DNA of 64,000 nucleotides from an uncultured Gammaproteobacteria bacterium (GCA_964397195.1 CAYNGY010000001.1:134586-198585); one strand, 5' to 3'. Positions 36,743-64,000 are shown, counted from the first letter of the stretch. Program-made: numbers and translations. The notes: generated from the letters alone by a model not told the origin.

Positions 36743-36749
36743 CTCGCTC

Positions 36750-42151: not shown

Positions 42152-45100
42152 ATGCGTCGTCTTCCCTCATTTATTTCACGAAAACGAGCGGTTGCTCTGG
42201 TAGCACTGCTCGGTTTCGTGGCGCCGCTTACCGCTTTTGCCCAGTCCTCCACCGATGACACCCGGGTCAAGATATACCAGTTCTTTGGGAATATTCTCCT
42301 TGGTATTTTGCAGACAGTTGCTCAGTTGGTGGCGATGGTCACCCATTTCTTAATCATCATCGCCCAGTACAGCGATTTCACGCGAAATGAGGTAGTGACC
42401 AAGGGCTGGGACATTGTCATCAGCGTGGCCAACATGTTCTTTGTGATCGCACTGCTCGTGATTGCCTTAGGCACGGTCCTGCGAGTCCAAAACTATCGCT
42501 ATAATCGATTACTCGGCAATGTCATCGTCATGGCCTTCCTGACGAACTTCTCGAAGACGATTGCCGCCTTCTTCATCCAATCGTCCCAGGTGGTCATGCT
42601 GACCTTTGTCAACGCCTTCAAGGACGCCGCGTTTGGGAACTTTGCCACCATGTTTGGGCTGGACAAGGTACTAACGTTTTCAACCATTGAGCCGAGCGGG
42701 GCGATTGATGTGCTCGCGGCGGTCCTGATCGGACTTTTTTTCCTAACCGTTGCTCTCATCACCATCCTGGCCTTAGCCGTCGTGTTGGCGGTGCGGATTG
42801 TCATGCTCTGGATCCTCGTGATCCTTTCGCCGTTTGCCTACGCCATGCGGGTGATTCCAAATACGGAAAAATGGGCCACGCAGTGGTGGGGCGAATTTGG
42901 AAAATGGGTCACGAACGGTCCGGTTATCGCCTTCTTTTTATGGTTGGCACTGGCCATTTTGTCGCAATCAAATCAAGCTGGCGGAAGCCCGGCCAGTTTC
43001 ATTACCTCGCAGGCCTCAGTGAAGAAAGCGATTGAAGCTATTCCGCCGTCAGAAACAGCGCTCTTTTTCGGAAAAACGGAACTGCTCGATTTGAATAATT
43101 TTGTTGGCTTCATCGTGTCCATAATTTTCCTCTGGATGGGACTCCAGATGGCTATTTCAACCGGCGGTGTGGCTGGAAAATGGGCCGGAAAAATCGCCGG
43201 CGCGGGCTTAGCCGCCTACGGCACCGTTTCACTCCTCAATGCGGTGCGTGATCGTACCGTTGCCCCAATTCAGGGCTACCTCAGCCAACGTGAACAGCGT
43301 CGCAAGCAGGCGATAACCGAGCGGACCGCCGGACTGACGGCGCGCGTCGACCAAGCCTCGTCACTAACCGTGGGAAATGTGGGCCGAGTCGGGGCCGCCG
43401 CCGGGGCGGGTATCCGTTCAATCGGCAGTGCAGTTAAAGCCGGGGACGCCGGAGTCATTACTGATGCCATGATGTCCGGGTTACGGACCGGAACTCGCGG
43501 TGAACAGCAGCGCCAACAGCGCATGGAAGAATTCCAGCAAGGGCGAGCCGCTCGGCGGGCTGGCGAGATGGACATTGCTAATCTTGATACCCAAGCCGTG
43601 CTCGGGAAGGCCGCTTCCGGATCAGACGAAGACAAGTATGCCGCCACGCAGGAGCTCATTCGGCGAAACGCCTTAAATGCGGATGACTCTTATCACCAGA
43701 GCCTTGTTCAGGGGGCGGCGCAGTATGCCGGCGACCGCAAGATGGGATCGGAGTTCCGTCAGAATCTTGAGAAGCTTAGTCCGGAGCTGGCTAAGCAGGT
43801 GCTCTATCATAACTTTGCCGGTCAAGCCGACCGCGACAAGTATCTGGAGCACGTCCAGCAACGTTCGGCTGCGCTTAAGCTAGAAAAGGGAGATGTAGAG
43901 TCGTTTGGTGGAACACTCGGAAACGAGATGGTTAAATATGCGCGGAATCGAGAGGATCTCGAGAAGATGTCCGGACTATTAGCCGACACGAGCGCGAAAG
44001 AGGAGGCATTCAAATCGCTCGACCTGTCGTCGGTTGCACCAAATGCGACCATTCGGGAGAGACGGAATATCGCCGAAGTGACCGGCCGGTATATGGCGGC
44101 GTTCCGCAATAATGATGGGACGCACATGGAGGATGAAATGAAGCAATGGGTTGAGGCGACGGGAAGTGATACGGTCGCAAAAACAGCTTCGCATACGGAT
44201 CTTTCGAGTAGCGAGGGTGTCCAAGCTCTGAAGAAGTCCGGATTAAAATTCTCCGGTTGGATTGCTATTCGAAAACGTGATAAAAAAACTGCTCAAGCCG
44301 TGAGCGCTGGTCTCAAGGGATGGCAAGATGAAATGGATAGTGCCACACCTGAAGGCGGTGATGTCCAAGCGAATGAGGATTGGCAGTTTGCGGCCGCTCA
44401 ACGATTTGCGGCAAATAATGGCGAGGTTATTGATTACAACTTTGGCACTGCGAAGGGACGGGAGCTGTTTGAGGGTGTCCTCGAAAATGCCAAAGCGGAG
44501 GACGTGAAGTCCATTGATAAATCTGACTTCTACAAGAAGGCAACCGCGGAAGAGAAAGCCTATATCCACCGGGCCATGGCGTTCAACATGCCAAACCCAC
44601 AATTAAGCGCCTTGTTGCTTGATGAAAATAAGACCCTCTCCAAGAGTGTCTTGGCCGAAGCACAGGACGTGTTGGATAATAAAGAAAAGAGCGCGGAAAA
44701 GATACCGAGTACGATTGCGAATAAACTGATTAGCATGAATTCGAACCCGGTGCTTGGGCGGTTTATGAATGCCGAAAAGGCCCGAGTGAACAAGATCAAA
44801 GATGACAAGGCGGCCATGAAGGCACAGGGCTTTGCTGGGCTCCCAACCGACCCGCCAGGGAAGCCAACCCCGGCCAAGCCACTCATGGATGTTGACCGCG
44901 ACACGTTCAATCGAACGAAAAAAGCGATTGCCGAATATACGGCCCTGACCGGTAACGCGGCCGGATTCTGGCTCGATAAAAACGGTGGATATAATGCCGC
45001 TTCGGGTGTCTATCTCGACCGCGCGACGTTCGAGGCTGCAAATCAAGTGGCCGGCTATCAAGCAGCACACGGTATTTCCCGCGTCAGTGGATTAAAGGGA

Positions 45101-49707: not shown

Positions 49708-50220
49708 ATGGCCACCCAGTTTACTGTTCCACAATTCACGAATGAGCCGGATAAGATCATCGGTCCGATCGTTGTTCGGCAATTCATCATCCTGCTCGTC
49801 GGTGCCGGGCTGGTGGTTGGGGCCTATCAGCTTTTTTATCGACTGATAAACTCGTCGGTTGGGTTTCTTTTCTCGGCGGTAATCATTTTAAGTCTGACGG
49901 CGGCTTTCGCCTTCATTCGAGTTAACGGTCGCCCGTTTCATCTTTTTATCTTGAATGTGATTGAGTCGTTACGCGTGCCGTCGATGCGTCTCTGGAACAA
50001 CATGGCAGCCGAGCGAATTCAGTACCGCCGTGAACCGCCGCCGCCGGCTCCGCCGCCGACAAAAGCCCCGCTCGTGCAAACGAATTTGGCCCGCCTAGCT
50101 ATGTTAGTGGATACCGGCGGAGCGTTCCACGAAGATGAGGATATCCTCTACTGGGGTGAGACATTACCGAAAGCTACTCGCCAAGCCGAGGTGCTTACCA
50201 ATCAGGTTGATCGCGAATAA
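49708..50220 (+). CDS. PrgI/VirB3-like small two-TM membrane protein
   Basis: 170 aa. Two adjacent hydrophobic helices (IVVRQFIILLVGAGLVVGAY / VGFLFSAVIILSLTAAFAFI). It sits immediately upstream of the VirB4 gene, as in Gram-positive T4SS. Confidence 0.55.
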   Translation: MATQFTVPQFTNEPDKIIGPIVVRQFIILLVGAGLVVGAYQLFYRLINSSVGFLFSAVIILSLTAAFAFIRVNGRPFHLFILNVIESLRVPSMRLWNNMAAERIQYRREPPPPAPPPTKAPLVQTNLARLAMLVDTGGAFHEDEDILYWGETLPKATRQAEVLTNQVDRE

Positions 50221-50226
50221 TTCCGT

Positions 50227-50952
50227 ATGGCCACACCGTCACAAAAAACGCCCCCACGACCGAAAAAAGTTGCGCCTTCAACGCAGCAGTATTTGGATAT
50301 CATGGAAATTCGCGACGATGCTGTAGTGATGAAGAACGGCGGATTAGTAGCGGTGCTCCTCGTGTCGTCAATCAATTTCTCGCTCAAATCAGAAGAAGAA
50401 CAAGAAGCGGTGATTGGGGCGTACGTCTCGTTCCTGAATACCATCGATTTTCCGCTTCAAATCGTCATCCAGTCCCGTCGCCTCGATATTGATGCCTATC
50501 TTGAAGTCCTCAAAGGTGTCGAGAAACAACAAACGAACGAACTGCTCAAGACGCAGACACAGGATTATCGTCGCTTTGTGAACGAGCTCGTGCAGATGAA
50601 CGCGATTATGTCGAAGCGTTTCTATGTGGTCATTCCTTTTTCACCAAAAGTAGATCGTCCGGGCAAATTCTTTAGCCGCCTGCTCGATGCCTTTGCGCCG
50701 ACGGAAACTATTCATTTGAAACAGAAGCAGTTTGAAAAATACCGCCTTGAATTATTTAAGCGGGTCGATAACGTCATGAACGCGCTATCGGCGGCCGGAC
50801 TCCAGTCACAGCCCTTACGGACGCAGGAACTGATCGAGCTGTACTACAATTCCTATAATCCCGAAACTGCCCGTCAAGAAAAACTCGACGACGTCCGAAA
50901 ATTGTCTTTAGAGGAAGTGTCATCTATCAAGCCCGACAATGCCCGAAGTTAA
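50227..50952 (+). CDS. VirB4/TrsE N-terminal domain encoded as a separate ORF
   Basis: YLDIMEIRDDAVVMKNGGLVAVLLVSSINFSLKSEEEQEAVIGAYVSFLNTIDFPLQIVIQ resembles the N-terminal (CagE/TrbE) region of VirB4. Its stop overlaps the ATG of the ATPase ORF by 14 nt, a +1 frame change. Confidence 0.6.
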   Translation: MATPSQKTPPRPKKVAPSTQQYLDIMEIRDDAVVMKNGGLVAVLLVSSINFSLKSEEEQEAVIGAYVSFLNTIDFPLQIVIQSRRLDIDAYLEVLKGVEKQQTNELLKTQTQDYRRFVNELVQMNAIMSKRFYVVIPFSPKVDRPGKFFSRLLDAFAPTETIHLKQKQFEKYRLELFKRVDNVMNALSAAGLQSQPLRTQELIELYYNSYNPETARQEKLDDVRKLSLEEVSSIKPDNARS

Positions 50953-52861
50953 TCTCTTCCGCCCAAACGAATTCCGTAGCGCCCCCCAAGCGAGTGGTGG
51001 TGGCACGACCCCAAAACTCCCCGAGGACGAGCGGGAGCTCCTTGAGGCTGAGCGCATCTACCGCCAAGGCGTCGTTCGAGAACTCGATCTTATCGCCCCG
51101 GCCGCCTTTAAGGTTGACCCGAGATTTCTGATGCTCAACGGTCGCTACGTTCGGACGCTCTTCGTTATTTCCTATCCGCGATACATCTCCGTTGGCTGGT
51201 TCGCGCCAATCATTAATTATAGCGCTCCGTTAGATGTCTCGATGTTCTTCTACCCGATTCCCTCGGACATCATCCTGAGGCAGTTAAAAAATAAGGTCGG
51301 CGCCCTCGAAGCCCAGCTGATTACTGACCAGGAAAAAGGCGCCCCGCGTGATCCGATGCGTGAAACAGCGCTTCGTGATATCGAAAAACTCCGCGACGAT
51401 TTAACGCAGGGGACCGAGAAGTATTTCCAGTTCGCCCTTTATGTTTCCTTTTACGCGGATTCGCTCAAAGAACTGGACGAACTGACAAACCGTATGGAGG
51501 CCCTCTTCGGCTCTCGTCTCGTGTACTCAAAGCGCTCCTTTTTCCAGTCCGAGCAGGGATTCACCTCAACCATGCCGCTTGGCCTTGATCGGCTTCAGGT
51601 CGCGTTCAACATGAACTCGTCCCCAATCGCCTCAAGTTTTCCGTTTATGTCGGCGGACCTGTCGAGTGATAATGGGATTTTGTACGGTATCAACCGTCAT
51701 AATAACTCGCTTATTCTCTTCGACCGTTTCTCCCTGCCAAACCCAAACTATACCGTCTTCGCTACCGCCGGTGCCGGTAAGTCATTCGCCGTCAAGTTAG
51801 AAATTATTCGGTCGATGATGTTCGGGACTGATATTATCGTCGTCGATCCGGAGCATGAATATAAATATCTATCTGATGCGGTCGGCGGGACGTATATTAA
51901 TATCTCCCTGAACTCCGATACGAAGATTAATCCCTTTGATCTCCCGCGCGGGATTGGCGGCGATGAAACCCCGGCCGATATTATTCGGTCCGCGGTTATT
52001 ACGCTCAAGTCCATGTTGCGCCTGATGCTGGGCGACGTGACTCATGAGGAAGATTCTATCCTCGATCGGGCGCTCCTCGAAACCTACGCCAAGAAAGATA
52101 TTACGCCGGATGCGGACTTAGCGAATATCGAGCCGCCCGTCATGTCAGATTTTCAAGAAGTATTGAGCGGTATGACCGGCGCCGAGAGTCTAGCGGAACG
52201 GTTGAAAAAATATACCGAAGGTACGTTCTCGGGGCTTTTTAACAGTCGGACGAACATTGAGCTGAACAATCAACTCGTCGTCTTCTCGGTCCGCGATCTT
52301 GAGGATGAACTTCGCCCAATCGGGATTTCGATTATTATTTCTTATATTTGGAATATCGCTCGTTCGCAGCTCAAGCGCCGCATTCTCGTCATTGATGAAG
52401 CGTGGTGGTTAATGCAACATGAAGACTCGGCAAAATTCGTTTACGGCCTCGTAAAACGATCGCGGAAATATTATCTGGGCGTTACGACGATTACCCAAGA
52501 CGTGAATGATTTCTTGCTCAGTCCATATGGTCAGGCCATCATCAATAACTCAGCACTTCGGCTGCTGATGAAACAATCGCCGGCGGCGATTGAGATTGTT
52601 ACCAAAACCTTCCTCCTGACCCAACAAGAACGGTATTTGTTACTTGAGGCGGGCGTCGGCGAGGGAATCTTCTTCGCCGGTACAAAACATGCCTACATGC
52701 AAGTCGTCGCCTCGCCGACAGAAAATCAGATCGTCACGACGAATCCAGAAGAGGTACTTCGCTTGGAAGAAGCGAAGCGCGAATTTGAAGACTCAATTGC
52801 CTCTGGGACGGCGACGAATGCCGGAGCGGCCGTCACCAACCCCGAAGATTTAACATCATAA
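50939..52861 (+). CDS. VirB4/TraC/TrsE-family type IV secretion ATPase (C-terminal ATPase portion)
   Basis: Walker A FATAGAGKSFAVK at about 51.77 kb, Walker B ILVIDEAWWLM at about 52.39 kb, and characteristic YISVGWF..., LDRLQVAFNMNS and GVTTITQD blocks. Confidence 0.9.
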   Translation: MPEVNLFRPNEFRSAPQASGGGTTPKLPEDERELLEAERIYRQGVVRELDLIAPAAFKVDPRFLMLNGRYVRTLFVISYPRYISVGWFAPIINYSAPLDVSMFFYPIPSDIILRQLKNKVGALEAQLITDQEKGAPRDPMRETALRDIEKLRDDLTQGTEKYFQFALYVSFYADSLKELDELTNRMEALFGSRLVYSKRSFFQSEQGFTSTMPLGLDRLQVAFNMNSSPIASSFPFMSADLSSDNGILYGINRHNNSLILFDRFSLPNPNYTVFATAGAGKSFAVKLEIIRSMMFGTDIIVVDPEHEYKYLSDAVGGTYINISLNSDTKINPFDLPRGIGGDETPADIIRSAVITLKSMLRLMLGDVTHEEDSILDRALLETYAKKDITPDADLANIEPPVMSDFQEVLSGMTGAESLAERLKKYTEGTFSGLFNSRTNIELNNQLVVFSVRDLEDELRPIGISIIISYIWNIARSQLKRRILVIDEAWWLMQHEDSAKFVYGLVKRSRKYYLGVTTITQDVNDFLLSPYGQAIINNSALRLLMKQSPAAIEIVTKTFLLTQQERYLLLEAGVGEGIFFAGTKHAYMQVVASPTENQIVTTNPEEVLRLEEAKREFEDSIASGTATNAGAAVTNPEDLTS

Positions 52862-52864
52862 CTC

Positions 52865-53419
52865 GTGCGTCGGTATCTCCTCATCTCCATCATCGGACTT
52901 CTCGCCATCGTCATTATCGGCGGCGGCGTCATACTGTTGGTTGACCGGACGCCCGCTCTACAAAATGCGATCAATGGGGAAAAAAATAATTCGATCATCA
53001 ATACCGCGATTGTGACAAACACGGCGAATACGAACACGAAGCCGAACACGGACAAAGCCGATGTGCTTCTTGTCGCCCGGGTTTTTACGGAACGGTACGG
53101 AACCGGATCGAGTGACGACGCGTTTGCCGGGTACCTGGCAGCCGTACCATATGCCACGACCGCGCTCGGTAATCAACTTGAGGCGAATGTTCGGGCGCAG
53201 AAACCAGCCACCGATGTCAATTATCGAGGTTTCGTAACGCACGTCGTGTCCTTAACGATCGATCAAGCGTCGTCCACGGTCGCCACCGTTCGAGTCGGAA
53301 CCCAGCGTACCGAGACAATTGCCACGACGGCCAAACAATATAATCAATCCATCACGCTGCTGGTAGTGAAGGAGTCAACCGGGTGGAAGGTCTCCTCCGC
53401 GCAGTGGCAGGCGCTCTAA
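52865..53419 (+). CDS. Membrane-anchored periplasmic protein, VirB8-like / NTF2-like fold candidate
   Basis: N-terminal TM (LLISIIGLLAIVIIGGGVILLV) followed by a roughly 150-aa domain with an alternating beta-strand pattern (VVSLTIDQASSTVATVRVGTQRTETIATTAKQYNQSITLLVVKESTGWKV). Confidence 0.5.
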   Translation: MRRYLLISIIGLLAIVIIGGGVILLVDRTPALQNAINGEKNNSIINTAIVTNTANTNTKPNTDKADVLLVARVFTERYGTGSSDDAFAGYLAAVPYATTALGNQLEANVRAQKPATDVNYRGFVTHVVSLTIDQASSTVATVRVGTQRTETIATTAKQYNQSITLLVVKESTGWKVSSAQWQAL

Positions 53420-53420
53420 T

Positions 53421-54263
53421 ATGGCCGATGCTATGTCAGTCACAATGACGCCAGAAGAACGCGCGAACAGTGCGGCCTGGGCCAAGGCGCGATTGCAGCA
53501 ACTGAAATCAACGCGTCGTGGTGCGGCGCGTACGGAATATGCCAGTGCCCTGAACGCCGACACGGCGGCGGGTCGTGATGCCTACCAGCGTAACGTCGGG
53601 ACGCCAATGCAGTCGGGGATTAATCGACAACTTAACCGGCTCCCGTCGTCAGTACGAAGCGTGGTCCAACCGTTTGCCGATCAGTATCTGCAAGCCCAAG
53701 AAAATTTGAATGATCGCCGATTGCGTGTTGGGGCGGCTACCCAAGCGTTGATGGCGAACGGCGAGCTGGCTCAAACGGCGGCCGCCCGATCGGCCCGCGC
53801 CGCGACACTCCGCGGCCTACGGAAGGCCGCTCGAGGTGAGGCTAGTCCTACTGAGGCGGAGAATGAAGCCCTAGCGAGTATTCAGCCCTTGGCCGAACAG
53901 GCGTGGGCCCGTTTGTGGGACATTCTTCAGTCGACCTTAGCCGCGCTGGGCACGGCATTTTGGGGGGTACTATCGACGGTCACACTCGTCCCAGTAGTCG
54001 CTGTCTTTTTTGCCAGACTCCTTGGTCGCATGTCATTCCGTATCGGTTTTCGGGGCGCTAAAGTCCATTTCGTGTCACCATATTCCGGTGCGGGGATGAT
54101 GACCCATGTGGTCAGCCTCCTGATGAATGTCGGCTGGGCTATCATATGGCTATCGGTCATGATTTTCCTGGTCTATCTCTATATTGAAGCCCAAGACAAA
54201 GTGTGTTGGGCGAGTTGGGTTGTCAATTTTTTCCGCGCTGGTTTTTGTCCATCCTCATCATGA
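53421..54263 (+). CDS. Hypothetical membrane protein (280 aa) with a C-terminal multi-TM region
   Basis: Soluble Ala/Arg-rich N-terminal half, then the hydrophobic helices LAALGTAFWGVLSTVTLVPVVAVFF and WAIIWLSVMIFLVYLYI. Confidence 0.65.
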   Translation: MADAMSVTMTPEERANSAAWAKARLQQLKSTRRGAARTEYASALNADTAAGRDAYQRNVGTPMQSGINRQLNRLPSSVRSVVQPFADQYLQAQENLNDRRLRVGAATQALMANGELAQTAAARSARAATLRGLRKAARGEASPTEAENEALASIQPLAEQAWARLWDILQSTLAALGTAFWGVLSTVTLVPVVAVFFARLLGRMSFRIGFRGAKVHFVSPYSGAGMMTHVVSLLMNVGWAIIWLSVMIFLVYLYIEAQDKVCWASWVVNFFRAGFCPSSS

Positions 54264-55399
54264 TACAGAAGGTGTTTCTACCGCTGGTTGTTGGACTTAC
54301 CCTGATCGGGGCATCGTTTGTATTTGTGCCTAGCCCGGTGCATGCGGTCGATGTCACCAAAGAAAAGCAGTACTTTATCCCTGACATCATCCTGCCGGGA
54401 CAGTTTGAGCGCGTGGAGATCGATAGTAGCCTGATGTCGAAGTACTTCCGGGCACTGTACGTCTACATGGTCTACATCGTCAGCATTATTGCGGTGGTGA
54501 TGATTATCTATGGTGGTTTGAAATGGGTCGCGGCGGCCGGAAATTCCGCCCAAATTAATGATGCGAAAGACGTGATAACTAATGCGGTTATCGCTATCGT
54601 GATCGGCCTGACCTCATATGTTTTGCTGTACGTCATCAATCCAAAACTCCTAAATCTGTCCTTACCACTCGGCGACACCGTCACCCAACACGCTCTCGGC
54701 ACACTCTGGAATGAGCAATTGGGCTGTTTTGAACAGTTAAGCTGTCCGCCGGGGTCAACACAAGTTCTTGGAGCAACGTGTGGGAGCAACTACACGACCG
54801 TAAATCCGGGTGAAAATGCCTGTACAGCGGCGGCTGCCGGCGGGAAAGGGATTTGTTGTCAGGCGGGTGATAAGTGTTATCGGTACTCTGCCTACGATGG
54901 GTCGCTTACCTCGAAGCTGCCGTATACCTGTAGTGCGGTCGATTCCGGCGATGAGTCGAAACGCCCATATTGTAAAGACGCGACGCCGTGTGGGACAACG
55001 ACGAAAGACTGCAGTGGTCTGACCTGTGGCGGTGGAAACAGTTGCTTGCTCATGTTTGTGAAGGAGCCGGACGGGTACAAAAACCGCTCCAAGTGTGTGA
55101 CCAGCAATGGCCTAGTAACCGAGAATGCCCTCAGCTGTGCCTCGGCATTATCCGGTGTCGATACGAAATTCACGATTCAGACCGATGCGAATCGAAACTG
55201 TGGGTGGGCGGCAAAAGGGGAAAGGTATTTGCACGCCGGGACCGATCCGCGTACCTGTTCAGCCGATCAAGTGTGTGTCATCATCCCGCCGAATATCTAT
55301 ACATCGGCCGAAGGAAAGGACATGTGTGTCTATCGTCAAACCGATGCGCAAGGGCTTGTCTATGACCCGATGCCATCCAAATGCATAACTATCCGCTAA
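54260..55399 (+). CDS. Pilin-like (TrbC/VirB2-like) two-helix module fused to a C-terminal disulfide-rich domain of about 230 aa (24 Cys)
   Basis: Start set at Met 54260 (MIQKVFLPLVVGLTLIGASFVFVPSPVHA signal). The module YMVYIVSIIAVVMIIYGGLKWVAAAGNSAQINDAKDVITNAVIAIVIGLTSYVLLYVINPKLLNL is shared with two paralogs. Confidence 0.7.
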   Translation: MIQKVFLPLVVGLTLIGASFVFVPSPVHAVDVTKEKQYFIPDIILPGQFERVEIDSSLMSKYFRALYVYMVYIVSIIAVVMIIYGGLKWVAAAGNSAQINDAKDVITNAVIAIVIGLTSYVLLYVINPKLLNLSLPLGDTVTQHALGTLWNEQLGCFEQLSCPPGSTQVLGATCGSNYTTVNPGENACTAAAAGGKGICCQAGDKCYRYSAYDGSLTSKLPYTCSAVDSGDESKRPYCKDATPCGTTTKDCSGLTCGGGNSCLLMFVKEPDGYKNRSKCVTSNGLVTENALSCASALSGVDTKFTIQTDANRNCGWAAKGERYLHAGTDPRTCSADQVCVIIPPNIYTSAEGKDMCVYRQTDAQGLVYDPMPSKCITIR

Positions 55400-55403
55400 G
55401 TGT

Positions 55404-56648
55404 ATGAATGAACGTCTCAAGCGCGCGTTGATCATCACTGGGTTTGTTTTAGTTGTCATTGGGATGTTCGTGGTGATTTATTTTGTGTTCTTTCGTTCCA
55501 CTGACCAACTGAACGGAAACACGAACCAGCCGGGCAATATCAATGGTCTGCCGAACGCGAACAACGGAAACCGTAATGCCTCGACAGGTAGTAATGTAAA
55601 CAGTCTGCCAGTCACAAATACCTCGGCGTCTGGCCCGAGTAAATATGCTGATGGAGGCGCGACCTTGGTTGAAACGGTCGTCAACACGCCGGTCGCCGGT
55701 CAAACCGTCAGCAACACCGGGAGTTTACAATACTACGATCGCCAAACCGGAAAGTTCTTCCAAGTTTCCGCCGATGGGATGTCAACCAAGGTGATGACGG
55801 ATGCGATCTACAAGGATCTCGATACTGTCACCTGGGATCCATCCGGCACGAAAGCCATCCTCCAATTTCCGGACGGGTCGAAGGTTCTCTATAACTTCGC
55901 CACCAAGAAACAGTCGACCCTACCGCGGGAACTCGATAATTTCTCATTCTCACCAACGGGCAGCCAAATTGTTTCGAAATATCTTGATGCCAAACATCTC
56001 GACAACCAGTGGCTGATGGTTTCAAACCCGGATGGCACCGGTTCACAATCAGTTGAACAACTCGCCGAGAATGCCGATAAGGTCATTGCTGCGTGGTCAC
56101 CCAACAATGCGGTGGTTGGCACCTACGAACGATCGTCGACGAGTAGTTCATCCGATATTATTTTCCTCGGGAAAAACAATGAAAATTACCCACTCGTCAC
56201 AGTTGACGGGAAAGGTTTTACGCCAAACTGGTCACCGGATGGATCGAAGATTCTCTATAGCGTCTACAGCGACGACACAAACAACGCCGCTCACCTCTAT
56301 ATTATGAATGGCGATGTTAACACCTTAGGGCAAAATATCATCGATCTCAATCTGAACACGAGCGCCAATAAATGTGCGTTCTCGCAGGACAATTACACTA
56401 TCTACTGCGCTGTTCCGTACTACACGGTGGAGAACTCGGGACCGATACCTTCGCTCGGGTATAGTGTTCCGGACAATCTCTATGCCATTGATATGCTCCG
56501 TGGGACGACGACCCTTCTCGCCCGGCCGGTGGATGAGCACAGTCTCCAGCAGTATTCGGTCGGGAGCATTCGACTCTCCGGTGATGAGTCGGCTATATAC
56601 TTTACGGACGCTAATACCGGCAAGCTTCATCGGATCTTGCTCCCATGA
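55404..56648 (+). CDS. Membrane-anchored TolB-like (PD40/WD40-like beta-propeller) protein
   Basis: N-terminal TM (ALIITGFVLVVIGMFVVIYFVFF). Repeated PD40-like blades WDPSGTKAILQFPDGS, FSPTGSQIVSKYLD, WSPNNAVVG and WSPDGSKILYS. Confidence 0.75.
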   Translation: MNERLKRALIITGFVLVVIGMFVVIYFVFFRSTDQLNGNTNQPGNINGLPNANNGNRNASTGSNVNSLPVTNTSASGPSKYADGGATLVETVVNTPVAGQTVSNTGSLQYYDRQTGKFFQVSADGMSTKVMTDAIYKDLDTVTWDPSGTKAILQFPDGSKVLYNFATKKQSTLPRELDNFSFSPTGSQIVSKYLDAKHLDNQWLMVSNPDGTGSQSVEQLAENADKVIAAWSPNNAVVGTYERSSTSSSSDIIFLGKNNENYPLVTVDGKGFTPNWSPDGSKILYSVYSDDTNNAAHLYIMNGDVNTLGQNIIDLNLNTSANKCAFSQDNYTIYCAVPYYTVENSGPIPSLGYSVPDNLYAIDMLRGTTTLLARPVDEHSLQQYSVGSIRLSGDESAIYFTDANTGKLHRILLP

Positions 56649-57877
56649 TCGCTCGCCCGTCACGATGGTTTTTCCTCGCGGTGTTCGGGGCGTTTCTCCT
56701 GCCCTTGATGGTGTCCGCGGAGGCGTTTACCGTCACATGCGAAACGGGCGATGATACGAGCAAGGTCGCGGGGACACCAGCGATGGTCTACGTTCCCGAT
56801 ATCACCATTCCGGGATTCACGGCCAGTCAAAAAGTGACGATTTCCGGCGACACACTTGGACTCTATATCCGCGGCCTCTTTGTGGTTATGGTCTGGACCG
56901 TGAGTGTCCTAGCGGTGGTGATGATCATCTACGGCGGGATCAAGTGGGTGGCAGCAGCAGGAGACGCGGGTCGGATCAATGATGCAAAAGATGTGGTCAT
57001 GAACTCAGTCATCGGGCTGGTGATTGCCCTCACATCGGTCGTACTTCTGCAAATCATAAATCCACAGCTGATAAATCTCACGGACCTGACCAACCTCGTT
57101 AAGCCGGTGAATAAGTGCTCACTCTCCGTCCTGCAACAATTGGTGGAAAAGAGCGGCAAGCTCGAGGCGAAATGTGCTTCGGGGCTCGGGACGCCGGAGC
57201 CCGATACCGTGTGCTTTGCGACGCCTGGGGTACCGTGCATTACGGGATTGAACCAGCTGATCAAACAGGCCGCCAGTTACACGCGGAGTGACGGCCACCT
57301 CGTCAGCGTCGACCCGATCATGATGAAGGCCATATTGTTAGGTGAGGCCGCCAACCAAGGTAAAACGACCTTGGTGTCAGGGCCAACCGCTGGACGGGCG
57401 TGTAAGCAAGATACGCCACGCTGTAAGTTGAAGGGCTCAGCCTATGGGATTATCCAAATGACCCATGCGACGATGATCGCAAATTGGGAACGGGTCAGCG
57501 GTTCAGTGCCCGCGGCCTGCGGGAGCGAAAATGAGGCGGTCTGGCGACAATCGTCGGGGTCATTAGCGGCCGATTGCGCGCGCATCCTCGATAATGGAAA
57601 GGAAGGCATACTCCTACAACTTAAAATGATGGCCAGCGAAATATCCGAGGTGGCGACGAAGAAAATATTAAATGACAATCCCACCTATATTGCCGGCGCG
57701 TACCATCTTGGCTCCGGAGGGATTGAAGAGTATCTCCGAACCGGAGAAGCGCGGAGCGAGTCCAGCTCAGCCTCGGTCGCCTACCTCAAAGCATTTAACG
57801 AGCGTTTCCATTCTATTTGTATTGAGTCGGCCGTTCAGAACTACGAAAACGATCGACCGGGGACCGCGCGAGAATAA
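56645..57877 (+). CDS. Pilin-like (VirB2-like) module fused to a lytic transglycosylase (SLT/VirB1-like) domain
   Basis: The N-terminal module VVMVWTVSVLAVVMIIYGGIKWVAAAGDAGRINDAKDVVMNSVIGLVIALTSVVLLQIINPQLINL is a paralog of the 54260 gene. The C-terminal domain carries SLT-like blocks LLGEAANQG, SAYGIIQM and AGAYHLGSGG at about 57.34-57.72 kb. Confidence 0.7.
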   Translation: MIARPSRWFFLAVFGAFLLPLMVSAEAFTVTCETGDDTSKVAGTPAMVYVPDITIPGFTASQKVTISGDTLGLYIRGLFVVMVWTVSVLAVVMIIYGGIKWVAAAGDAGRINDAKDVVMNSVIGLVIALTSVVLLQIINPQLINLTDLTNLVKPVNKCSLSVLQQLVEKSGKLEAKCASGLGTPEPDTVCFATPGVPCITGLNQLIKQAASYTRSDGHLVSVDPIMMKAILLGEAANQGKTTLVSGPTAGRACKQDTPRCKLKGSAYGIIQMTHATMIANWERVSGSVPAACGSENEAVWRQSSGSLAADCARILDNGKEGILLQLKMMASEISEVATKKILNDNPTYIAGAYHLGSGGIEEYLRTGEARSESSSASVAYLKAFNERFHSICIESAVQNYENDRPGTARE

Positions 57878-57880
57878 TCT

Positions 57881-59239
57881 ATGGCTAAATCAACAACCGT
57901 TTTTACCTGCAGCCACTGCGATGGGCAGTTTCCCAAATGGACTGGTCGCTGTCCTGAATGTGGGCAATGGGGAACCCTGAAAGAAGAACGGGTGTCGGCG
58001 ACGGCTGCGGCCGCGCCGCGGGCCGCTAGTGGCGACGTGGTGTCGCTAAATGACCTGACCGCCGAACCGCTTGTTCGATACGCGACCGGCTCACAGGAGC
58101 TCGACCGAGTATTAGGGGGTGGTGTTGTGCCAGGCTCACTGATTCTGTTGGGGGGTGACCCCGGGATCGGGAAATCTACGCTGGCCCTCGAGGCCGCGCA
58201 CAGCCTAGCCGTCAGTGGTTCAAAGGTGCTCTATGTCAGTGGCGAGGAATCGGCCGCCCAGGTCGCGGTGCGACTACGACGTATTGCGCCTGCCGGTACC
58301 AAGATGGACTTCATGGCGGAAACGTCTCTGCCGCGTATCCTAGCCACTGTCAAAAAAATAAAACCGCACGTGGTCGTGATTGACTCCATCCAAACGATCA
58401 GCACGCCGGAAGCTGCGGTCGAAGCTGGAAGTGTTCAACAGGTTCGGTTGGCGGCCGCCACACTCCTCCAAGAAGCGAAGACGAAGAACTTCGCCTGTAT
58501 TATTGTCGGGCATGTGACCAAAGAGGGATCAATGGCCGGCCCGCGCACACTCGAGCATCTCGTCGACGTCGTCATGTACCTCGAAGGTGATCCGCTCTCC
58601 AGCTACCGTCTGCTCCGGGCGGCTAAGAACCGATTCGGCTCAACGAATGATACCGGTGTTTTTATGATGGGTGATCGCGGGCTCCGCGATGTCGCCGAAC
58701 CATCGCGGGTATTCCTAGCCGACCGTCACGATGGCTCGGGGACGGTGGCCACGCTGGTGCTCGAGGGAACACGCCCGTTTGCGATTGACATCCAAGCACT
58801 CACGTCGCCAACCGCCTTTGGGAATCCGCGTCGTGCTGCGGTCGGGATCGATCAAACGCGATTGCAATTACTCTTGGCGGTCCTCACCCGCCGAGCCGGA
58901 TTAAAGACCATTGGTGCCCAGGATGTCTTCGTCAATATCGTTGGCGGCCTCACGGTGCGCGAACGATCGGTCGATGCGGCTGTCTGTGTGGCGGTGGCTT
59001 CATCTATTTCCGATGTGGCGGTGGCTTCGACCACCGCGGTGCTCGGTGAAGTAGGCTTAGGCGGTGAGTTACGTCGAGTCAGTGATATCGACCGGCGCGT
59101 CAAAGAACTCGCGCGCCTCGGATTTAAAGAGATTTGGCATCCAGTCCAGCCCACGGCAAAAATGCCGGCTGGGGTGATCAGCCGTCCAATGAAGTCGATT
59201 GAGATGGCCGTGGCGTTACTTCAAAAACCGCGACGATAA
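57881..59239 (+). CDS. radA: DNA repair protein RadA/Sms
   Basis: N-terminal C4 zinc ribbon (CSHCDGQFPKWTGRCPECGQWG), RecA-like Walker A LLGGDPGIGKSTL, KNRFG, and a C-terminal Lon-protease-like domain. It starts 3 nt after the previous gene. Confidence 0.95.
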   Translation: MAKSTTVFTCSHCDGQFPKWTGRCPECGQWGTLKEERVSATAAAAPRAASGDVVSLNDLTAEPLVRYATGSQELDRVLGGGVVPGSLILLGGDPGIGKSTLALEAAHSLAVSGSKVLYVSGEESAAQVAVRLRRIAPAGTKMDFMAETSLPRILATVKKIKPHVVVIDSIQTISTPEAAVEAGSVQQVRLAAATLLQEAKTKNFACIIVGHVTKEGSMAGPRTLEHLVDVVMYLEGDPLSSYRLLRAAKNRFGSTNDTGVFMMGDRGLRDVAEPSRVFLADRHDGSGTVATLVLEGTRPFAIDIQALTSPTAFGNPRRAAVGIDQTRLQLLLAVLTRRAGLKTIGAQDVFVNIVGGLTVRERSVDAAVCVAVASSISDVAVASTTAVLGEVGLGGELRRVSDIDRRVKELARLGFKEIWHPVQPTAKMPAGVISRPMKSIEMAVALLQKPRR

Positions 59240-59240
59240 C

Positions 59241-61310
59241 CTACTCGCGGTGGTAAACGCCGCTCGGCGCTTTCCAGGTATCATCCATCATGATGGCGCG
59301 ATCTTGGCCGTGTTCACGGAGATAGAGCGCAGTTTCACGGGCGGCAATAATGAGCTCACGGTCGCTCAGGGTGGCCATCCGCCAGCTCGGCCAGCCCGAC
59401 TGCCGGATGCCATACATATCGCCCGCCCCGCGGGTTTGTAAGTCAAATTCGGCTAAGGCTAAGCCGTCGTCGGTGGAGGCGACGCGTTCCACGCGCGTCC
59501 GTGCTTCTGCGGCATCGGTCGTCAGGACGAAGATACAGGTGCTTTGGACGGAACTGCGACCGACGCGCCCGCGCAGTTGGTGCAGCTGCGCGAGCCCAAA
59601 TCGTTCCGCCCCATCAACTACCATCAGCGTCGCTTCGGGCACATCGACACCAACCTCAATCACGGTCGTGCCGACTAAAACGGTGATGCGTCCCGATCGG
59701 AAATCATCCATTACGGCTACCCGATCGTCGGCCGACAGTTCCCCATGGATGAGGCCGATGTGTGGTGCGAGGTCGGGTAGTGTCTGCTTGAGGCGCTCGT
59801 ACTCAACCGTGGCCGCATGGGCGCCAAAATGGTCTGATTCATCAATCAACGGCGTAATGTAGTAGACCCGTTGTCCCGCTGTCACAGTCGCTTGGATCTG
59901 TTGGTCAATAGCGGCGACATCTGCCACGGTTTTAACCTCCGAACGGATCGGTTGGCGGCCCGCCGGTTTGGTTCGGAGTCGTGAAATCTGCAGCTCACTC
60001 CCGAGAAACAAGGCTAATGTTCGCGGGATCGGCGTGGCGGTCAAACTGAGGAAGTGTGGTGTGTGGAGTCCGGAGGTGGCCATCTGTGCCGACAAGCCGG
60101 CGCGTTGGGTGACGCCAAAGCGCTGTTGCTCATCGACAATAGTAAAGCCTAGTTGCGCCCAGGGCAACGGCGTCTCGAGAATCGCCTGGGTCCCCACCAC
60201 CAGATGTACCTCGCGATCGCGTATTGCTTGGTCAAGCCCGGCTCGTGAAAAATCGGCGGCGGTGTTGGACCGAATACGCTGGCCGGTGACGAGCGCTAGG
60301 ACGATGTCGGTTCCGGCGAATAGTGTTGAGAGGGTGGCGAAATGCTGCTCAGCTAACACCACCGTCGGGACAAGAAACGCGACTTGTCCACCCTGGCGCG
60401 CGACGTTATAGGCGGCAATGGCCGCGACAATCGTTTTTCCTGAACCGACATCGCCCTGAAGCAACCGGGACATTGGGGCCGTCGTTCCGAGTGACTGTAG
60501 AATCTCCCAGGCCGCTTGGCGCTGGTCATTGGTTAGTTCATAGGGAAAACGCTGGACAAACGAGCGCACCGCCGTCTCAGAAAACGGATAGGCCACCGCG
60601 GCCGGCTGGCTCCGGGAATCTGTGTCAATTTGCCAACGCAGCTGCCAGAGCAAGAGCTCGTCAAATTGCATGCGCCGAACACCGGCCGCCGCGACGTCAT
60701 GATTCTCCGGGAGGTGAATCGCGCGCAAGGCGTCAGCTCGTGGCAAGAGTTGCCATCGCTCTGTTATCTCGGTCGAGAGATGATCGGGAATTAGGTTGGC
60801 AAACTCGAGGGCCTGCGCGATGACCGATCGTATCTGTCGCTGCGACAGGCCATCAATTGACGGGTAGACGGGGACAAGTCGTTGGTGGGTCGGGTCGGCC
60901 GTCTGACGTTCAAACGTCGGATTAACCATCTGGAAGCTCTCGCCTTTGGTCTCAATTCGGCCGGATATAAAGTACCGTTGGCCGATGGCGAGTGTTTTCT
61001 GGAGGTACGGTTGGTTGAACCAGATCAGGGGAATAGATGCGGTCTCATCCTCAAGTCGCGCCTCCGTGATTGCCGATACACGCCGACGAAAAAGTTTGCG
61101 AGTGCGGAGGGCGGTCAATTCGCCGGCCAGGGTGACCATATCACCCGCGTGAACATTTTTAATGTCGATCTGGGTCCGCCAGTCTTCATGGCGAAGGGGA
61201 AAATACAATAACGCGTCCTCGAGCGTCTCGAGGCCAAGGCGGGAAAATTTTCCTGCTAACGCCGGACCGATTCCGTGCAAACTCTTGATGGGCGTCAACA
61301 GGGAATGCAT
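59241..61310 (-). CDS. recG: ATP-dependent DNA helicase RecG
   Basis: Wedge/OB N-terminal domain, helicase motif I GDVGSGKT, motif II IVDEQQRFGV, and TATPIPRTLAL. Convergent with radA; the stops are 1 nt apart. Confidence 0.95.
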   Translation of the reverse strand: MHSLLTPIKSLHGIGPALAGKFSRLGLETLEDALLYFPLRHEDWRTQIDIKNVHAGDMVTLAGELTALRTRKLFRRRVSAITEARLEDETASIPLIWFNQPYLQKTLAIGQRYFISGRIETKGESFQMVNPTFERQTADPTHQRLVPVYPSIDGLSQRQIRSVIAQALEFANLIPDHLSTEITERWQLLPRADALRAIHLPENHDVAAAGVRRMQFDELLLWQLRWQIDTDSRSQPAAVAYPFSETAVRSFVQRFPYELTNDQRQAAWEILQSLGTTAPMSRLLQGDVGSGKTIVAAIAAYNVARQGGQVAFLVPTVVLAEQHFATLSTLFAGTDIVLALVTGQRIRSNTAADFSRAGLDQAIRDREVHLVVGTQAILETPLPWAQLGFTIVDEQQRFGVTQRAGLSAQMATSGLHTPHFLSLTATPIPRTLALFLGSELQISRLRTKPAGRQPIRSEVKTVADVAAIDQQIQATVTAGQRVYYITPLIDESDHFGAHAATVEYERLKQTLPDLAPHIGLIHGELSADDRVAVMDDFRSGRITVLVGTTVIEVGVDVPEATLMVVDGAERFGLAQLHQLRGRVGRSSVQSTCIFVLTTDAAEARTRVERVASTDDGLALAEFDLQTRGAGDMYGIRQSGWPSWRMATLSDRELIIAARETALYLREHGQDRAIMMDDTWKAPSGVYHRE

Positions 61311-61426
61311 GGTACTAGTATATCACGCGATAGCGGTATCTGACCCCGGAGTGTCAAGGCGGATACAAAAAGATAGCGGGTACGTCGTTCGGTCCGCTCG
61401 TGCTGTTCGATAGTTTGTACGCGCTT

Positions 61427-61504
61427 TGGTGCGCCCGGCAGGATTTGAACCTACGACCCTCAGCTCCGCAAGCTGATGCTCTATCCAGGCTGAGCTACGG
61501 GCGC
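61427..61504 (-). tRNA. tRNA-Arg (anticodon GCG), CCA encoded
   Basis: The reverse complement folds as GCGCCCG/CGGGCGC acceptor, GCTC-AGCCTGGATA-GAGC D-arm, anticodon stem TCAGC/GCTGA with loop TTGCGGA, T-arm GTAGG-TTCAAAT-CCTGC, and discriminator A. There is no G3:U70, so it is not Ala. Confidence 0.7.
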
Positions 61505-61735
61505 ACGAGAGCGCGTACAAATGTGCTAGGACAGTATTCCACTGTTCCAAGTCTCGGGCCTTAACAGGCGAGGAGAGTCGTACATCATCGGGACAGGAGT
61601 ACTGTGCCGGATGAGAATACCCGATTTATGGATATTCTGCAAGGGTTGAGCGCAACTCACCATCATGGAATACGAAACTGAAAAAATGCTGAAAAAATCG
61701 TTTTTTACGGTAATATTAGCCAAAAAAAATATGGG

Positions 61736-61764
61736 TTGCTCGAACCCGCTGAACAACGTATGCT
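61736..61764 (+). promoter_or_regulatory. Candidate promoter giving a leaderless transcript for the 61771 pilin-like gene
   Basis: ttgctc (61736-61741), 17-nt spacer, tatgct (61759-61764). The ATG lies 7 nt downstream of the -10 element, with no Shine-Dalgarno sequence. Confidence 0.4.
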
Positions 61765-61770
61765 ACGACT

Positions 61771-62100
61771 ATGTTTGTCGCCACCGCGCTTACGACGGCC
61801 ACGATTGCTAATGCGAATATTGGCCAATCAATTGGCCTACAAGATACCGACCTTGTGACGGTTGTGTACCGAGTTGTTCAGTTAGCGCTCGGCTACTTAC
61901 CGCTGATCGCGGTCGTCTTTGTCATTCTCGGTGGGTTCCAATGGCTGACATCGGCCGGTGATGAAGAACGACTCTCGCGCGCCAAGCGGACGCTCTCCGG
62001 CGCCTTTATTGGGCTTCTGATTGTGTTGTTCGCCTGGGCGATCGTCCACTACACCGCCGGCACAGTCCTCAACGTGAGTAATACAAACACCGGCCAATAG
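61771..62100 (+). CDS. Stand-alone pilin-like (TrbC/VirB2-like) two-helix protein, a paralog of the modules at 54260 and 56645
   Basis: 109 aa. LPLIAVVFVILGGFQWLTSAGDEERLSRAKRTLSGAFIGLLIVLFAWAIV aligns with ...MIIYGGLKWVAAAGNSAQINDAKDVITNAVIAIVIGL.... Confidence 0.65.
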   Translation: MFVATALTTATIANANIGQSIGLQDTDLVTVVYRVVQLALGYLPLIAVVFVILGGFQWLTSAGDEERLSRAKRTLSGAFIGLLIVLFAWAIVHYTAGTVLNVSNTNTGQ

Positions 62101-62121
62101 GCCGGTTGACCGTCCCGCGTA

Positions 62122-62610
62122 TTACATCTTGAACATCCGAAGTAACTGGTCGCTCGCGGTCTCGCTTTCTTGAGCGATATTTTCCGGCAAAAACTCATTC
62201 AACGCTTCGCGGACCTTCAGCGGGTTCTGATTCATCAGGTCAATGGAAAACGGCTGACGGAGCGTTGTCTTAAACGTGATGTAGAGTTTTTTGATCTCTG
62301 GGGGCCGATAGACAATCCAGAACTCACGTAGCTCTTCCCAGCGAATATTCATGTCGGCCACCTCGAGACCGAGATCGGTGATCCGGGCGGTAATTTCTGT
62401 CGGTCGGCGACGGAATCGGAGAATTAAAATCAGGGTGATTAAGACAATCACCGGAATGGCCGTGTACACCCGACCAAGAACGGCTAAGCCAGCCATAATG
62501 GCCGCTAATACAAAGAATCCGAGATACCAAGCTCGTCCGCGGGGGTAGTCCGCAAACTCCGGGAAGCTCCATTCGAGGATAGTATTGCCGTGTGGGGCCT
62601 GCTCAGCCAT
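62122..62610 (-). CDS. Hypothetical membrane protein (two TM helices plus a roughly 100-aa cytoplasmic, bPH/DUF304-like domain; tentative)
   Basis: Start moved to the internal Met (MAEQAPHGNTILEWSF...) to avoid an overlap with the upstream gene. Helices WYLGFFVLAAIMAGLAVLG and IPVIVLITLILIL. Confidence 0.5.
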   Translation of the reverse strand: MAEQAPHGNTILEWSFPEFADYPRGRAWYLGFFVLAAIMAGLAVLGRVYTAIPVIVLITLILILRFRRRPTEITARITDLGLEVADMNIRWEELREFWIVYRPPEIKKLYITFKTTLRQPFSIDLMNQNPLKVREALNEFLPENIAQESETASDQLLRMFKM

Positions 62611-62648
62611 ACCTAGATAGTATAGCACAATCGGCTCAGCACCGCTGA

Positions 62649-64000
62649 TTAGCGGGAAAAGCCGTACGGATAAGGCGGGAACTGTGGGGTCGTAATCATG
62701 ATGCTCCCACGCCGATCGTTGATCGCCGAAGCGGTGTAGATGGTGCTCTGACTGACCGCCACATCGAAGCCGCTCATCCACCAGCGCTCAAACACGTCTC
62801 GCTCGACGATGATGTTCCCGCTTTGGTCGTGTTGGCGGATGATACCGTGGCCGTGACTCATGGGGACGGTGTAGATGCTCGCCTCGTTGGTAGTCGGGCT
62901 GATGCTCGTCGTGACGCGTAATCCGCCGCGGAAGGTCGCGTCACCCGAGAGGAATGCCGCAGTCAGATTCCCGTGCATGGTGAAGACGCGAACCTGTGGC
63001 TCACTGCCCGCCCCCGGCGTCACCACAATCAATCCGGTCTGCGTCGCGGACGCGCTGATCCCGGCGACATCAACACCGCCATGAAAACTATTCGGGTAAG
63101 CGTCAAAAACCGAGACGATATCGCCGTTCATCCGAAAAACGCGCACTTCCGGACCGCCACCACGTCCGGCGCCGGTAATAATTTCGTCTACGCCGTCACC
63201 GTCCAGGTCAGCAGTGCTAACGCGGACGCCGCCGCGGAAGGCTTTGCCGTAGGCGAGGAAGCTCGCGAGGACTGTGCCATGGCGGTCGACCACTTGAACC
63301 AGCGGATCATTTTTCGGTCCGAGGCCGGTCACAATCTCTTTCACCCCGTCGCCGTTCACGTCGCCGATTGCGACATCGACGCCGCCGCGGCCTTTTCGCT
63401 GGCTCAAGAAAAATCCGCCGATATCAAATCCCGCTGGGGTCATAATCCGAACTTGTGGCGGTGAACCGACGCCAGCCCCGACCACGATTTCGTCGCCGTC
63501 ATATTCAGGTGCAATATCACCCATGGCGATGTTCGATCCGACGCGAAATTGCGCGAACGGAAGAATTTCAAACGAAAGGGTCGGCGCAATAGCGGCGCGC
63601 GTTATTTTCTTCGCCGCTTTGAGGCTATCGTACGGGTTGATGGCGGTATCGTCGGGTTTTCGGATTTCAAAATGGAGGTGGGGCGACGTGCTCTCGGCAT
63701 TTCCGCTATCGCCCATGTAGGCGATCACCTGGCCAGCAACGACTGGCCAACTACGTTCAACGCCCGGCGCGTAGGCGAGCGTCGCGCCGCCGCGACCATT
63801 GTCGGTTCCCGGTGTATCGTTGTTGATATGGATGTAGGAGTACGTGTACCCATCCGCGTCGACAATCCGAATGTACCAGCCATAACTTGGTTCCGGGTAG
63901 GCGACGAATTCAAGCGTCCCATCAACCGCGGCGACGAGCGGTTGCATCTTTTTTCCAAAAATGTCGTTTCCGGCGTGGGTATGACCGACGCGGGGGTTTC
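62649..64000 (-). CDS. Partial CDS; the 5' end lies beyond the window. M23-family peptidase domain fused to FG-GAP/VCBS-type beta-propeller repeats
   Basis: The reading frame stays open upstream of the listed Met to the window edge (...VGHTHAGNDIFGKKMQPL...). M23 motifs HTHAGND and SPHLHFEI. FG-GAP-like repeats GDVNGDGVKEIVTG, ADLDGDGVDEIITGAGRGG and NGDIVSVFDAY. Confidence 0.8.
   Translation of the reverse strand, partial: NPRVGHTHAGNDIFGKKMQPLVAAVDGTLEFVAYPEPSYGWYIRIVDADGYTYSYIHINNDTPGTDNGRGGATLAYAPGVERSWPVVAGQVIAYMGDSGNAESTSPHLHFEIRKPDDTAINPYDSLKAAKKITRAAIAPTLSFEILPFAQFRVGSNIAMGDIAPEYDGDEIVVGAGVGSPPQVRIMTPAGFDIGGFFLSQRKGRGGVDVAIGDVNGDGVKEIVTGLGPKNDPLVQVVDRHGTVLASFLAYGKAFRGGVRVSTADLDGDGVDEIITGAGRGGGPEVRVFRMNGDIVSVFDAYPNSFHGGVDVAGISASATQTGLIVVTPGAGSEPQVRVFTMHGNLTAAFLSGDATFRGGLRVTTSISPTTNEASIYTVPMSHGHGIIRQHDQSGNIIVERDVFERWWMSGFDVAVSQSTIYTASAINDRRGSIMITTPQFPPYPYGFSR

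Follow-up and report, generated by a model that had tools for sequence, protein, structure and literature searches.

The locus

The stretch of DNA analysed here, 64,000 nucleotides (nt) from an uncultured Gammaproteobacteria bacterium (GCA_964397195.1 CAYNGY010000001.1:134586-198585; in the following 'the window'), carries a Patescibacteria-type chromosomal type IV secretion system (T4SS) operon in which two genes, P1 and P2, join a pilin-like two-helix module to a further C-terminal domain; a third gene, P3, encodes the module alone. The operon lies on the plus strand and is tightly packed, with intergenic gaps of at most 6 nt or overlaps from PrgI through radA. It comprises the genes for a PrgI/VirB3-like protein (49708-50220; PF12666 PrgI, E 1.1e-8), a TrsD-like or VirB4 N-terminal-like protein of 241 amino acids (aa) (50227-50952), the VirB4 ATPase (50939-52861; PF19044 TraG P-loop, E 2.7e-29), a membrane-anchored protein of 184 aa (52865-53419), a 280-aa protein with C-terminal hydrophobic helices (53421-54263), P1 (379 aa, 54260-55399), a 414-aa propeller protein (55404-56648), P2 (410 aa, 56645-57877) and radA (57881-59239). 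The start codons of P1 and P2 each overlap the stop codon of the preceding gene (ATGA). After radA follows recG on the minus strand, and a tRNA-Arg gene (61427-61504) lies between recG and P3 (109 aa, 61771-62100, plus strand), which sits 3.9 kb past the P1/P2 operon. The VirB4 of the window is 80-83% identical to that of metagenome-assembled genomes of Candidatus Kerfeldbacteria, a part of the Patescibacteria class ABY1. T4SS loci of ABY1 typically come with recG and radA (PMC12102498), and the same two genes are present here. We conclude that this is a chromosomal T4SS locus typical of class ABY1 (Kerfeldbacteria-like).

A shared module of the T4SS pilin family

In all three proteins two hydrophobic helices are joined by a short polar loop, an arrangement seen both by hydropathy and in AlphaFold2 (AF2) models. 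The hydropathy scan places the helices at residues 62-94 and 104-131 of P1, 70-106 and 115-144 of P2, and 28-63 and 73-102 of P3. As a whole the module spans residues 54-131 in P1 (nt 54419-54652), 66-143 in P2 (nt 56840-57073) and 23-100 in P3 (nt 61837-62070). It is 60% identical between P1 and P2 over 78 aa; local alignments of the P3 module give 29% (69 aa) to P1 and 43% (42 aa) to P2. Two motifs, YGGIKWVAAAG and INP, are strongly conserved.

The Pfam family PF18895 (T4SS_pilin; model of 71 positions) has a gathering score of 26.6 bits, and all three modules exceed it: P1 with 28.9 bits (E 1.2e-6, model positions 10-71), P2 with 29.5 bits (E 8e-7, positions 2-70) and P3 with 47.1 bits (E 2.5e-12, positions 3-70). 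These E-values are far beyond chance, and none of the other open reading frames (ORFs) of the window matched the module profile (next best E 0.24). On sequence grounds the module is a member of the curated 'Type IV secretion system pilin' family. A shared two-helix module in the genes at 54260, 56645 and 61771 had been proposed in an earlier note on this DNA, and hydropathy, pairwise alignment and PF18895 all bear it out. The same note likened the module to TrbC/VirB2 pilins, which is supported by the PF18895 scores, by the T4SS operon and, indirectly, by related modules (below), but a direct match is missing. P1, P2 and P3 did not match PF04956 TrbC/VirB2 at E<=1, hhalign of the module profile against the single VirB2 sequence of the Agrobacterium plasmid pTiC58 gave a probability of 3% (not significant), and no solved pilin was matched by sequence in searches of the PDB.

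We then compared these modules with those of related loci, using a set of 50 proteins collected with a module hidden Markov model from 26 virB4-anchored loci, the window included (hence 25 relatives' loci). PF18895 is matched by 48 of the 50, and two also match PF04956 (best E 5.3e-4); likewise, two pilins of Southlakia epibionticum match both families in a published table (PMC10633639). These data bear on the simplest alternative, namely that the module is a generic membrane anchor whose pilin likeness and location are incidental. Two-helix hydrophobic hairpins are indeed low in information content, and the failed comparisons with Agrobacterium VirB2 and with solved pilins would fit such an anchor. 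However, all three modules pass a curated threshold that 48 of the 50 related proteins match as well, the two motifs are strongly conserved, some members also match TrbC/VirB2, and the position of the module genes relative to virB4 is fixed in the 25 relatives' loci. We regard a generic anchor as very improbable. A chance or generic signal-anchor was rejected because of the curated-threshold matches and the fixed synteny.

A further family with sequence similarity is NF045849, the 'Mbov_0395 family pilin-like conjugal transfer protein' of mycoplasma integrative and conjugative elements, to which P1 (E 0.004), P2 (E 2.8e-4) and P3 (E 4.3e-7) all score below the cut-off (best score 29.5 against 40 bits). 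A tblastn search of plasmids with P3 returned two marginal matches only, one of them on an 'Mbov_0395 family pilin-like' gene of a Pontibacillus plasmid. These are hints from sequence that Patescibacteria pilins perhaps have counterparts in monoderm (MPF-FATA-type) elements, a class from which VirB2-like pilins were taken as absent in a 2025 survey (PMC12102498).

A probable divergent lysozyme-like domain on P2

P2 begins with a predicted signal peptide (residues 1-25/27, judged by eye). Behind the pilin module lies a putative, divergent lysozyme-like domain of the GH23/SLT type (residues ~195-405, nt 57227-57859) with a putative catalytic Glu234 (nt 57344-57346) and the motifs GIIQ (residues 268-271, nt 57446-57457) and AYHLG (residues 352-356, nt 57698-57712). 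A word-indexed protein search with this domain recovered only P2 itself. With an exhaustive HMMER search 18 relatives came to light, and ten of these, 363-461 aa long, have the domain in the same place. In an alignment of 11 family sequences, all of the same architecture, E234, G268 and Q271 do not vary and Y353 hardly does. Five of the 11 match PF01464 SLT (best E 1.5e-7). Searched against the PDB, the family profile matched g-type (goose-type) lysozymes (E 0.0012), EtgA (a transglycosylase of type III secretion), Tse3 (a type VI effector that is a muramidase) and an endolysin; no enzyme kind other than lysozyme-like was matched in the region of the domain. Comparison by hhalign with the canonical SLT domains found at the same position in five relatives' loci (L011, L013, L016, L017 and L018) gave a probability of 96% (E 3.7e-9), pairing GEA with ES, GIIQ with GLMQ and AYHLG with AYNGG. 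In the AF2 model of P2 (mean pLDDT, the predicted local distance difference test, 69) helices make up most of the C-terminal domain, the pLDDT by ten-residue block lies mostly at 65-94, and E234 ends a helix (224-234). Against the single VirB1 sequence of pTiC58, hhalign found no significant similarity for the domain.

The C-terminal part of P2 thus appears to be a divergent GH23 lysozyme-like domain that has kept its catalytic glutamate; a lytic transglycosylase and a muramidase are not separable by sequence. Its membership of the superfamily would follow only transitively, from homologues and from profile-profile comparison. As the direct similarity to VirB2 and VirB1 is not significant, we file P1-P3 under PF18895 and GH23 and not under the VirB2 and VirB1 families proper. 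The function that we consider most probable for P2, with some reservation, is that of a wall hydrolase of the VirB1/PrgK type that belongs to the machine and is anchored by a VirB2-like hairpin.

P1 and P3

The open frame of P1 extends upstream to a GTG at 54203; its 379 aa are counted from the ATG at 54260. A predicted signal peptide (residues 1-29, nt 54260-54346, judged by eye) and the pilin module are followed by a C-terminal cysteine domain (residues 156-379, nt 54725-55396). It holds 20 cysteines, and not 24 as the earlier note had counted, all of them within residues 156-375; eight are invariant among 14 orthologues of P1. No Pfam domain was found in this part of P1 or in that of ten orthologues, and used as a query the domain recovered only itself. 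A search with full-length P1 found eight relatives, and the cysteine-rich domain is covered in two of them. The AF2 model of P1, built on a seven-sequence alignment, is unusable (mean pLDDT 40, below 40 throughout the cysteine-rich domain). We conclude that P1 is a paralogue with a pilin hairpin that carries a fast-evolving 20-cysteine domain; on the surface of the T4SS apparatus this disulfide-rich domain probably has an adhesive or structural role.

P3, in turn, is a free pilin, an ordinary small member of PF18895, stand-alone and without cysteine. It cannot be extended upstream because of an in-frame TGA at 61750-61752, and the roughly 25 residues ahead of its module are uncharged or acidic, with none basic. 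This stretch and the upstream stop leave P3 without a canonical leader, in agreement with what had been read from the sequence before, although it may have a short atypical one (MFVATALTTATIANA). An orthologue of 110 aa in the related locus L002 (E 2.6e-16) adjoins recG, and its N-terminus is similar in kind. A perfect 7-bp GC-rich inverted repeat (62089-62106, ACCGGCC-AATA-GGCCGGT) lies across the stop codon of P3, before a convergent minus-strand gene, and may be a bidirectional terminator.

Fusions and domain swapping in related loci

The relatives show a fixed gene order: virB4, two small genes, a P1-type gene, a propeller gene of ~414 aa and a P2-type gene. The position of the module genes relative to virB4 is constant across the 25 relatives' loci. 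Nearly all module proteins are long (275-1006 aa in 48 of the 50); the other two measure about 110 aa. The ten P1-type genes tested had no Pfam domain outside the module. The second module gene, by contrast, bears a wall hydrolase in 18 loci (window counted), and the hydrolases are of three unrelated types, GH23, M23 and M15/VanY: a recognisable SLT domain in L011, L013, L016, L017 and L018, the divergent lysozyme-like domain in the window, L002, L005, L006 and L007, Peptidase_M23 in L003, L004, L009 and L010, Peptidase_M15_4 in L012, and VanY/M15 in L028, L064 and L075. Single module proteins carry Big_7, Big_13 or Beta_helix instead. A search of relatives for such fusions, as suggested in the earlier note, was thus successful. 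The note's opinion that a pilin-hydrolase fusion is unusual has to be turned around for this ABY1-type lineage, where such a fusion is the rule and not a rarity; it holds in so far as we found no description of one in the literature searched. Some of the hydrolase genes have a long N-terminal extension of about 160-670 aa before the hairpin (L006 15433-18453; L003 15547-16998; L010 8927-10369; L005 17084-18628). With such extensions the hairpin can lie in the middle of the protein, with predicted extracellular parts on either side.

An enzyme class that is swapped freely and a domain that diverges fast are what one would expect at a host interface. Hence one might ask whether the P2-type hydrolases serve mainly against a host bacterium, as weapons or feeding tools that degrade its wall. 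The presence of the type VI effector Tse3 among the profile matches would suit this, as would the biology of the ultra-small Patescibacteria: they live as obligate epibionts and cannot grow on hosts without their T4SS (PMC10633639). However, P2 is tethered by its hairpin and not free, so that it could reach a host wall only via a pilus or very close contact; no immunity gene was identified beside P2; and mixed sets of SLT, M23 and CHAP domains are normal for PrgK and TraG, the assembly hydrolases of Gram-positive T4SS (PMC12102498). We therefore consider a mainly host-directed role improbable, and prefer a wall hydrolase that serves the machine itself.

Conservation declines from the cytoplasm outward. 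Measured against the closest relatives (L002-L010), identity is 80-83% for VirB4, 68-74% for the TrsD-like protein, 57-65% for PrgI, 48-54% for the propeller protein and 43-56% for the modules. In the C-terminal domains of P1 and P2 it is down to 26-44%, often covering part of the length only, or the domain is replaced. The fused modules keep a complete pilin fold. At 80-83% identity of VirB4 they are about 50-56% identical and thus better conserved than the domains attached to them, with about 26-38% or a different domain altogether, which raises a second alternative: P1 and P2 might be true minor or tip pilins that polymerise with P3-type subunits and are perhaps the first to be incorporated. 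A pilus would then bear the hydrolase and the cysteine-rich domain, which would cut the producer's wall during growth and afterwards bind and breach that of the host. Adhesin-like domains on the same module in other relatives (Big_7, Big_13, Beta_helix) and the free short pilin near the locus in the window and in L002 are in line with this. In the structures of the F and T pili the VirB2-type subunits have both ends outward. A host-directed pilus has also been speculated about in reviews of this T4SS (PMC12857230). On the other side, a pilus has not been reported for any Patescibacteria T4SS in the literature searched, and a P3-type short pilin lies within 10 kb in only one of the 25 relatives' loci. 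Moreover, by a geometric estimate a domain of 25-30 kDa on each subunit would crowd a VirB2-type filament, so that sparse or tip incorporation is the most that seems plausible. On balance we regard minor pilins as an unlikely explanation, both for the polymerisation and for the wall cutting from a pilus, though the less unlikely of the two alternatives set out in this section. Slightly more doubtful still is its most specific form, a 'drill-head' pilus, in which P1 and P2 would be the first subunits of a polymerising pilus and would hold the enzyme and the disulfide-rich binding domain at its tip.

A possible mechanism

P1 and P2 both have an N-terminal hydrophobic leader that is followed by two hydrophobic helices. 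If P2 is the wall hydrolase of the machine, as we favour, the following arrangement might be envisaged. After cleavage of the signal peptide, helix 1 would go inward through the membrane, the loop would be cytoplasmic and helix 2 would lead back out. Since both helices would cross the membrane, the domain after the hairpin would lie outside the cell, and the enzyme of P2 and the cysteine-rich domain of P1 would be placed in the wall compartment. A hairpin with both ends outside is also what the attached domains and the pre-hairpin extensions of the relatives fit. P2 would be the machine's own peptidoglycan hydrolase, a functional counterpart of VirB1 in diderms and of PrgK or TraG in Gram-positive bacteria. 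Because its anchor is a pilin hairpin, it would be brought to the membrane platform that handles pilin subunits, and by such targeting wall cutting would be limited to where the conduit crosses the wall. P1 would be a paralogous carrier of a disulfide-rich surface domain and P3 the free pilin. The placement of the enzyme at the tip or base of a pilus (of the conduit, in the earlier note) is something that we infer.

Several points weigh against this interpretation. The sequence of P2 itself did not match the Pfam SLT family even at E<=1, and a PDB sequence search with its C-terminal domain found nothing. The residue after the catalytic glutamate is alanine and not the usual serine. Foldseek with the full-length P2 model gave nothing significant, although MltF and an LT_GEWL protein were among the weak matches. 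The interhelix loop has a net charge of about -1 in P1 and P2, so that the positive-inside rule for a cytoplasmic loop is not followed. A cleavable leader together with a two-pass hairpin is also more than tethering needs, which hints at a role beyond anchoring. Finally, hydrolase activity and its substrate, be it the own or the host wall, are putative and of a kind that computation cannot show. With regard to the earlier proposal of an SLT domain on P2, the motifs are real and homologues and profile-profile comparison support it, but a Pfam match by P2 is lacking. Its wider reading of P2 as a 'VirB2-VirB1 fusion' finds support in the PF01464 matches of family members, in the hhalign result and in the hydrolases at this position in the related loci; significant similarity to VirB1 and VirB2 themselves was not found.

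Other genes of the window

The 241-aa TrsD-like gene overlaps the start of virB4 by 14 nt and resembles the N-terminal part of VirB4-family ATPases. Its NCBIfam matches are all under the family cut-offs (Mbov_0397 family, VirB4 N-terminus, E 2.1e-11; NF041427 TrsD, E 7e-8; CD1110 family, E 8.8e-6). From these N-terminal matches it appears that VirB4 function is divided between the TrsD-like protein and the ATPase. The 280-aa protein ahead of P1 has a helical N-terminal part before its hydrophobic helices, and residues 93-191 show weak similarity to the type III needle-tip protein SipD (E about 0.03, NCBIfam and PDB), which may reflect coiled-coil composition only; a part as VirB5-like tip or adaptor protein is conceivable. 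The 414-aa protein consists of an N-terminal membrane anchor, a low-complexity linker and a TolB/PD40-like beta-propeller, with sub-threshold matches to the TolB propeller (E 3.1e-6), the Dpp5 propeller (E 3.2e-7) and PD40 (E 0.016). In L002-L010 it always lies between the two module genes (about 51% identity over about 412 aa).

Upstream, on the plus strand, a protein of 1668 aa (42152-47158) combines an N-terminal multi-helix hydrophobic region with a C-terminal part that is long, highly charged and like a coiled coil. Neither Pfam nor NCBIfam gave a match for the protein. By its position and its likeness to SEML1_0013 of S. epibionticum it may be a candidate for an extended VirB6-like channel subunit; SEML1_0013 is TrbL/VirB6-like and about 1000 aa long (supplement of PMC10633639). 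The T4SS cluster is immediately preceded by genes for two very large secreted proteins, of 1419 aa (32483-36742) and 1824 aa (36675-42149), the latter extremely cysteine-rich. These two proteins match BNR/Ycf48-like, fn3 and purple-acid-phosphatase-N-like (Ig-like) domains, look like surface or adhesion proteins and may be members of the T4SS locus. At the other end, an ORF on the minus strand (62649-63947) combines a Peptidase_M23 domain with FG-GAP repeats. Its M23 match begins at ORF residue 2 and profile position 14, which may point to a truncated N-terminus or a miscalled start; the ORF overlaps the next minus-strand ORF (62122-62781) by 133 nt. Between 49 and 62.5 kb, promoter-like sites were not more frequent than in shuffled sequence. 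Terminator-like sites in the same interval numbered 25 versus 13.5 ± 3.7 in shuffled sequence, and none stood at an operon boundary.

Comparison with known systems and significance

The T4SS of Patescibacteria and its VirB2-like pilins have been published before (PMC10633639, PMC12102498, PMC12857230). The pilins are found near virB4, and most genomes with VirB2 homologues seem to be without VirB1 (PMC12102498). In S. epibionticum, the one member of the Patescibacteria in which T4SS genes have been tested, epibiotic growth requires both the system and its pilins (PMC10633639). Its pilins (SEML1_0014-0019) belong to the same Pfam family as our modules and to the same type of chromosomal locus (PrgI/VirB3, TrsD and VirB4, with recG and radA close by in the window, as published for class ABY1). 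The pilins described so far are small, with listed genes of about 100-185 codons, and often stand in tandem arrays (PMC10633639, PMC12102498). In the window and its ABY1-type relatives, in contrast, 48 of 50 members are fusions of 275-1006 aa, and there is no array of short genes beside virB4.

A peptidoglycan hydrolase encoded within the T4SS operon is a feature that P2 shares with VirB1 of Agrobacterium, PrgK of pCF10, TraG of pIP501 and SEML1_0006/0007. P2-type proteins, with M23 or M15 domains as alternatives to the SLT/lysozyme-like one, would be membrane-tethered and extracytoplasmic like the Gram-positive enzymes. P2 differs from this group in its single catalytic domain, and from VirB1, PrgK and TraG in its tether, which is not a simple N-terminal anchor but a complete VirB2-like hairpin behind a predicted cleavable leader. 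For SEML1_0006 lysozyme-like and protease domains are listed from residue 61, and PF18895 is listed neither for it nor for SEML1_0007. Small two-helix pilin-like proteins are also known from monoderm T4SS, namely the PrgF-type proteins, which a 2025 preprint argued to be VirB2-like in Gram-positive T4SS, and Mbov_0395. Unlike P1 and P2 these are free-standing and not fused to an enzyme, and the NF045849 scores of our modules stay sub-cut-off; the TrsD-like gene of the window matches the mycoplasma VirB4 family. VirB5 and minor pilins with large head domains might offer a functional analogy, that of an accessory subunit that displays a domain on or at a pilus. VirB5 is not built on the VirB2 hairpin, and kinship to P1 or P2 was neither tested nor found.

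In conclusion, the components are known, but the conserved fused architecture with interchangeable hydrolases is to our knowledge undescribed: we found no description of a pilin-hydrolase fusion in the Patescibacteria T4SS papers, their supplements or targeted literature searches, a coverage that is incomplete and does not extend to domain-architecture databases. The same incomplete coverage of the literature held no description, for other T4SS classes, of the pilin hairpin as a general carrier of surface domains, the role in which it appears here. A pilus-borne reading of P1 and P2 still draws some support from the hairpin, which is unusually complete and well conserved, and from the adhesin-like domains that some relatives have instead. 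If the doubtful drill-head pilus were true, it would bore through the producer's and then the host's wall, so opening the conduit that life as an epibiont relies on. It would also explain why many Patescibacteria genomes seem to lack VirB1. In ABY1-type lineages at least, many 'VirB2' matches near virB4 are long fusions, one of which bears the 'missing' wall hydrolase, and given these fusions, censuses of VirB2 and VirB1 genes in Patescibacteria need to be read differently. Moreover, the fusion gives a testable handle on how the machine crosses the wall, the producer's or the host's.

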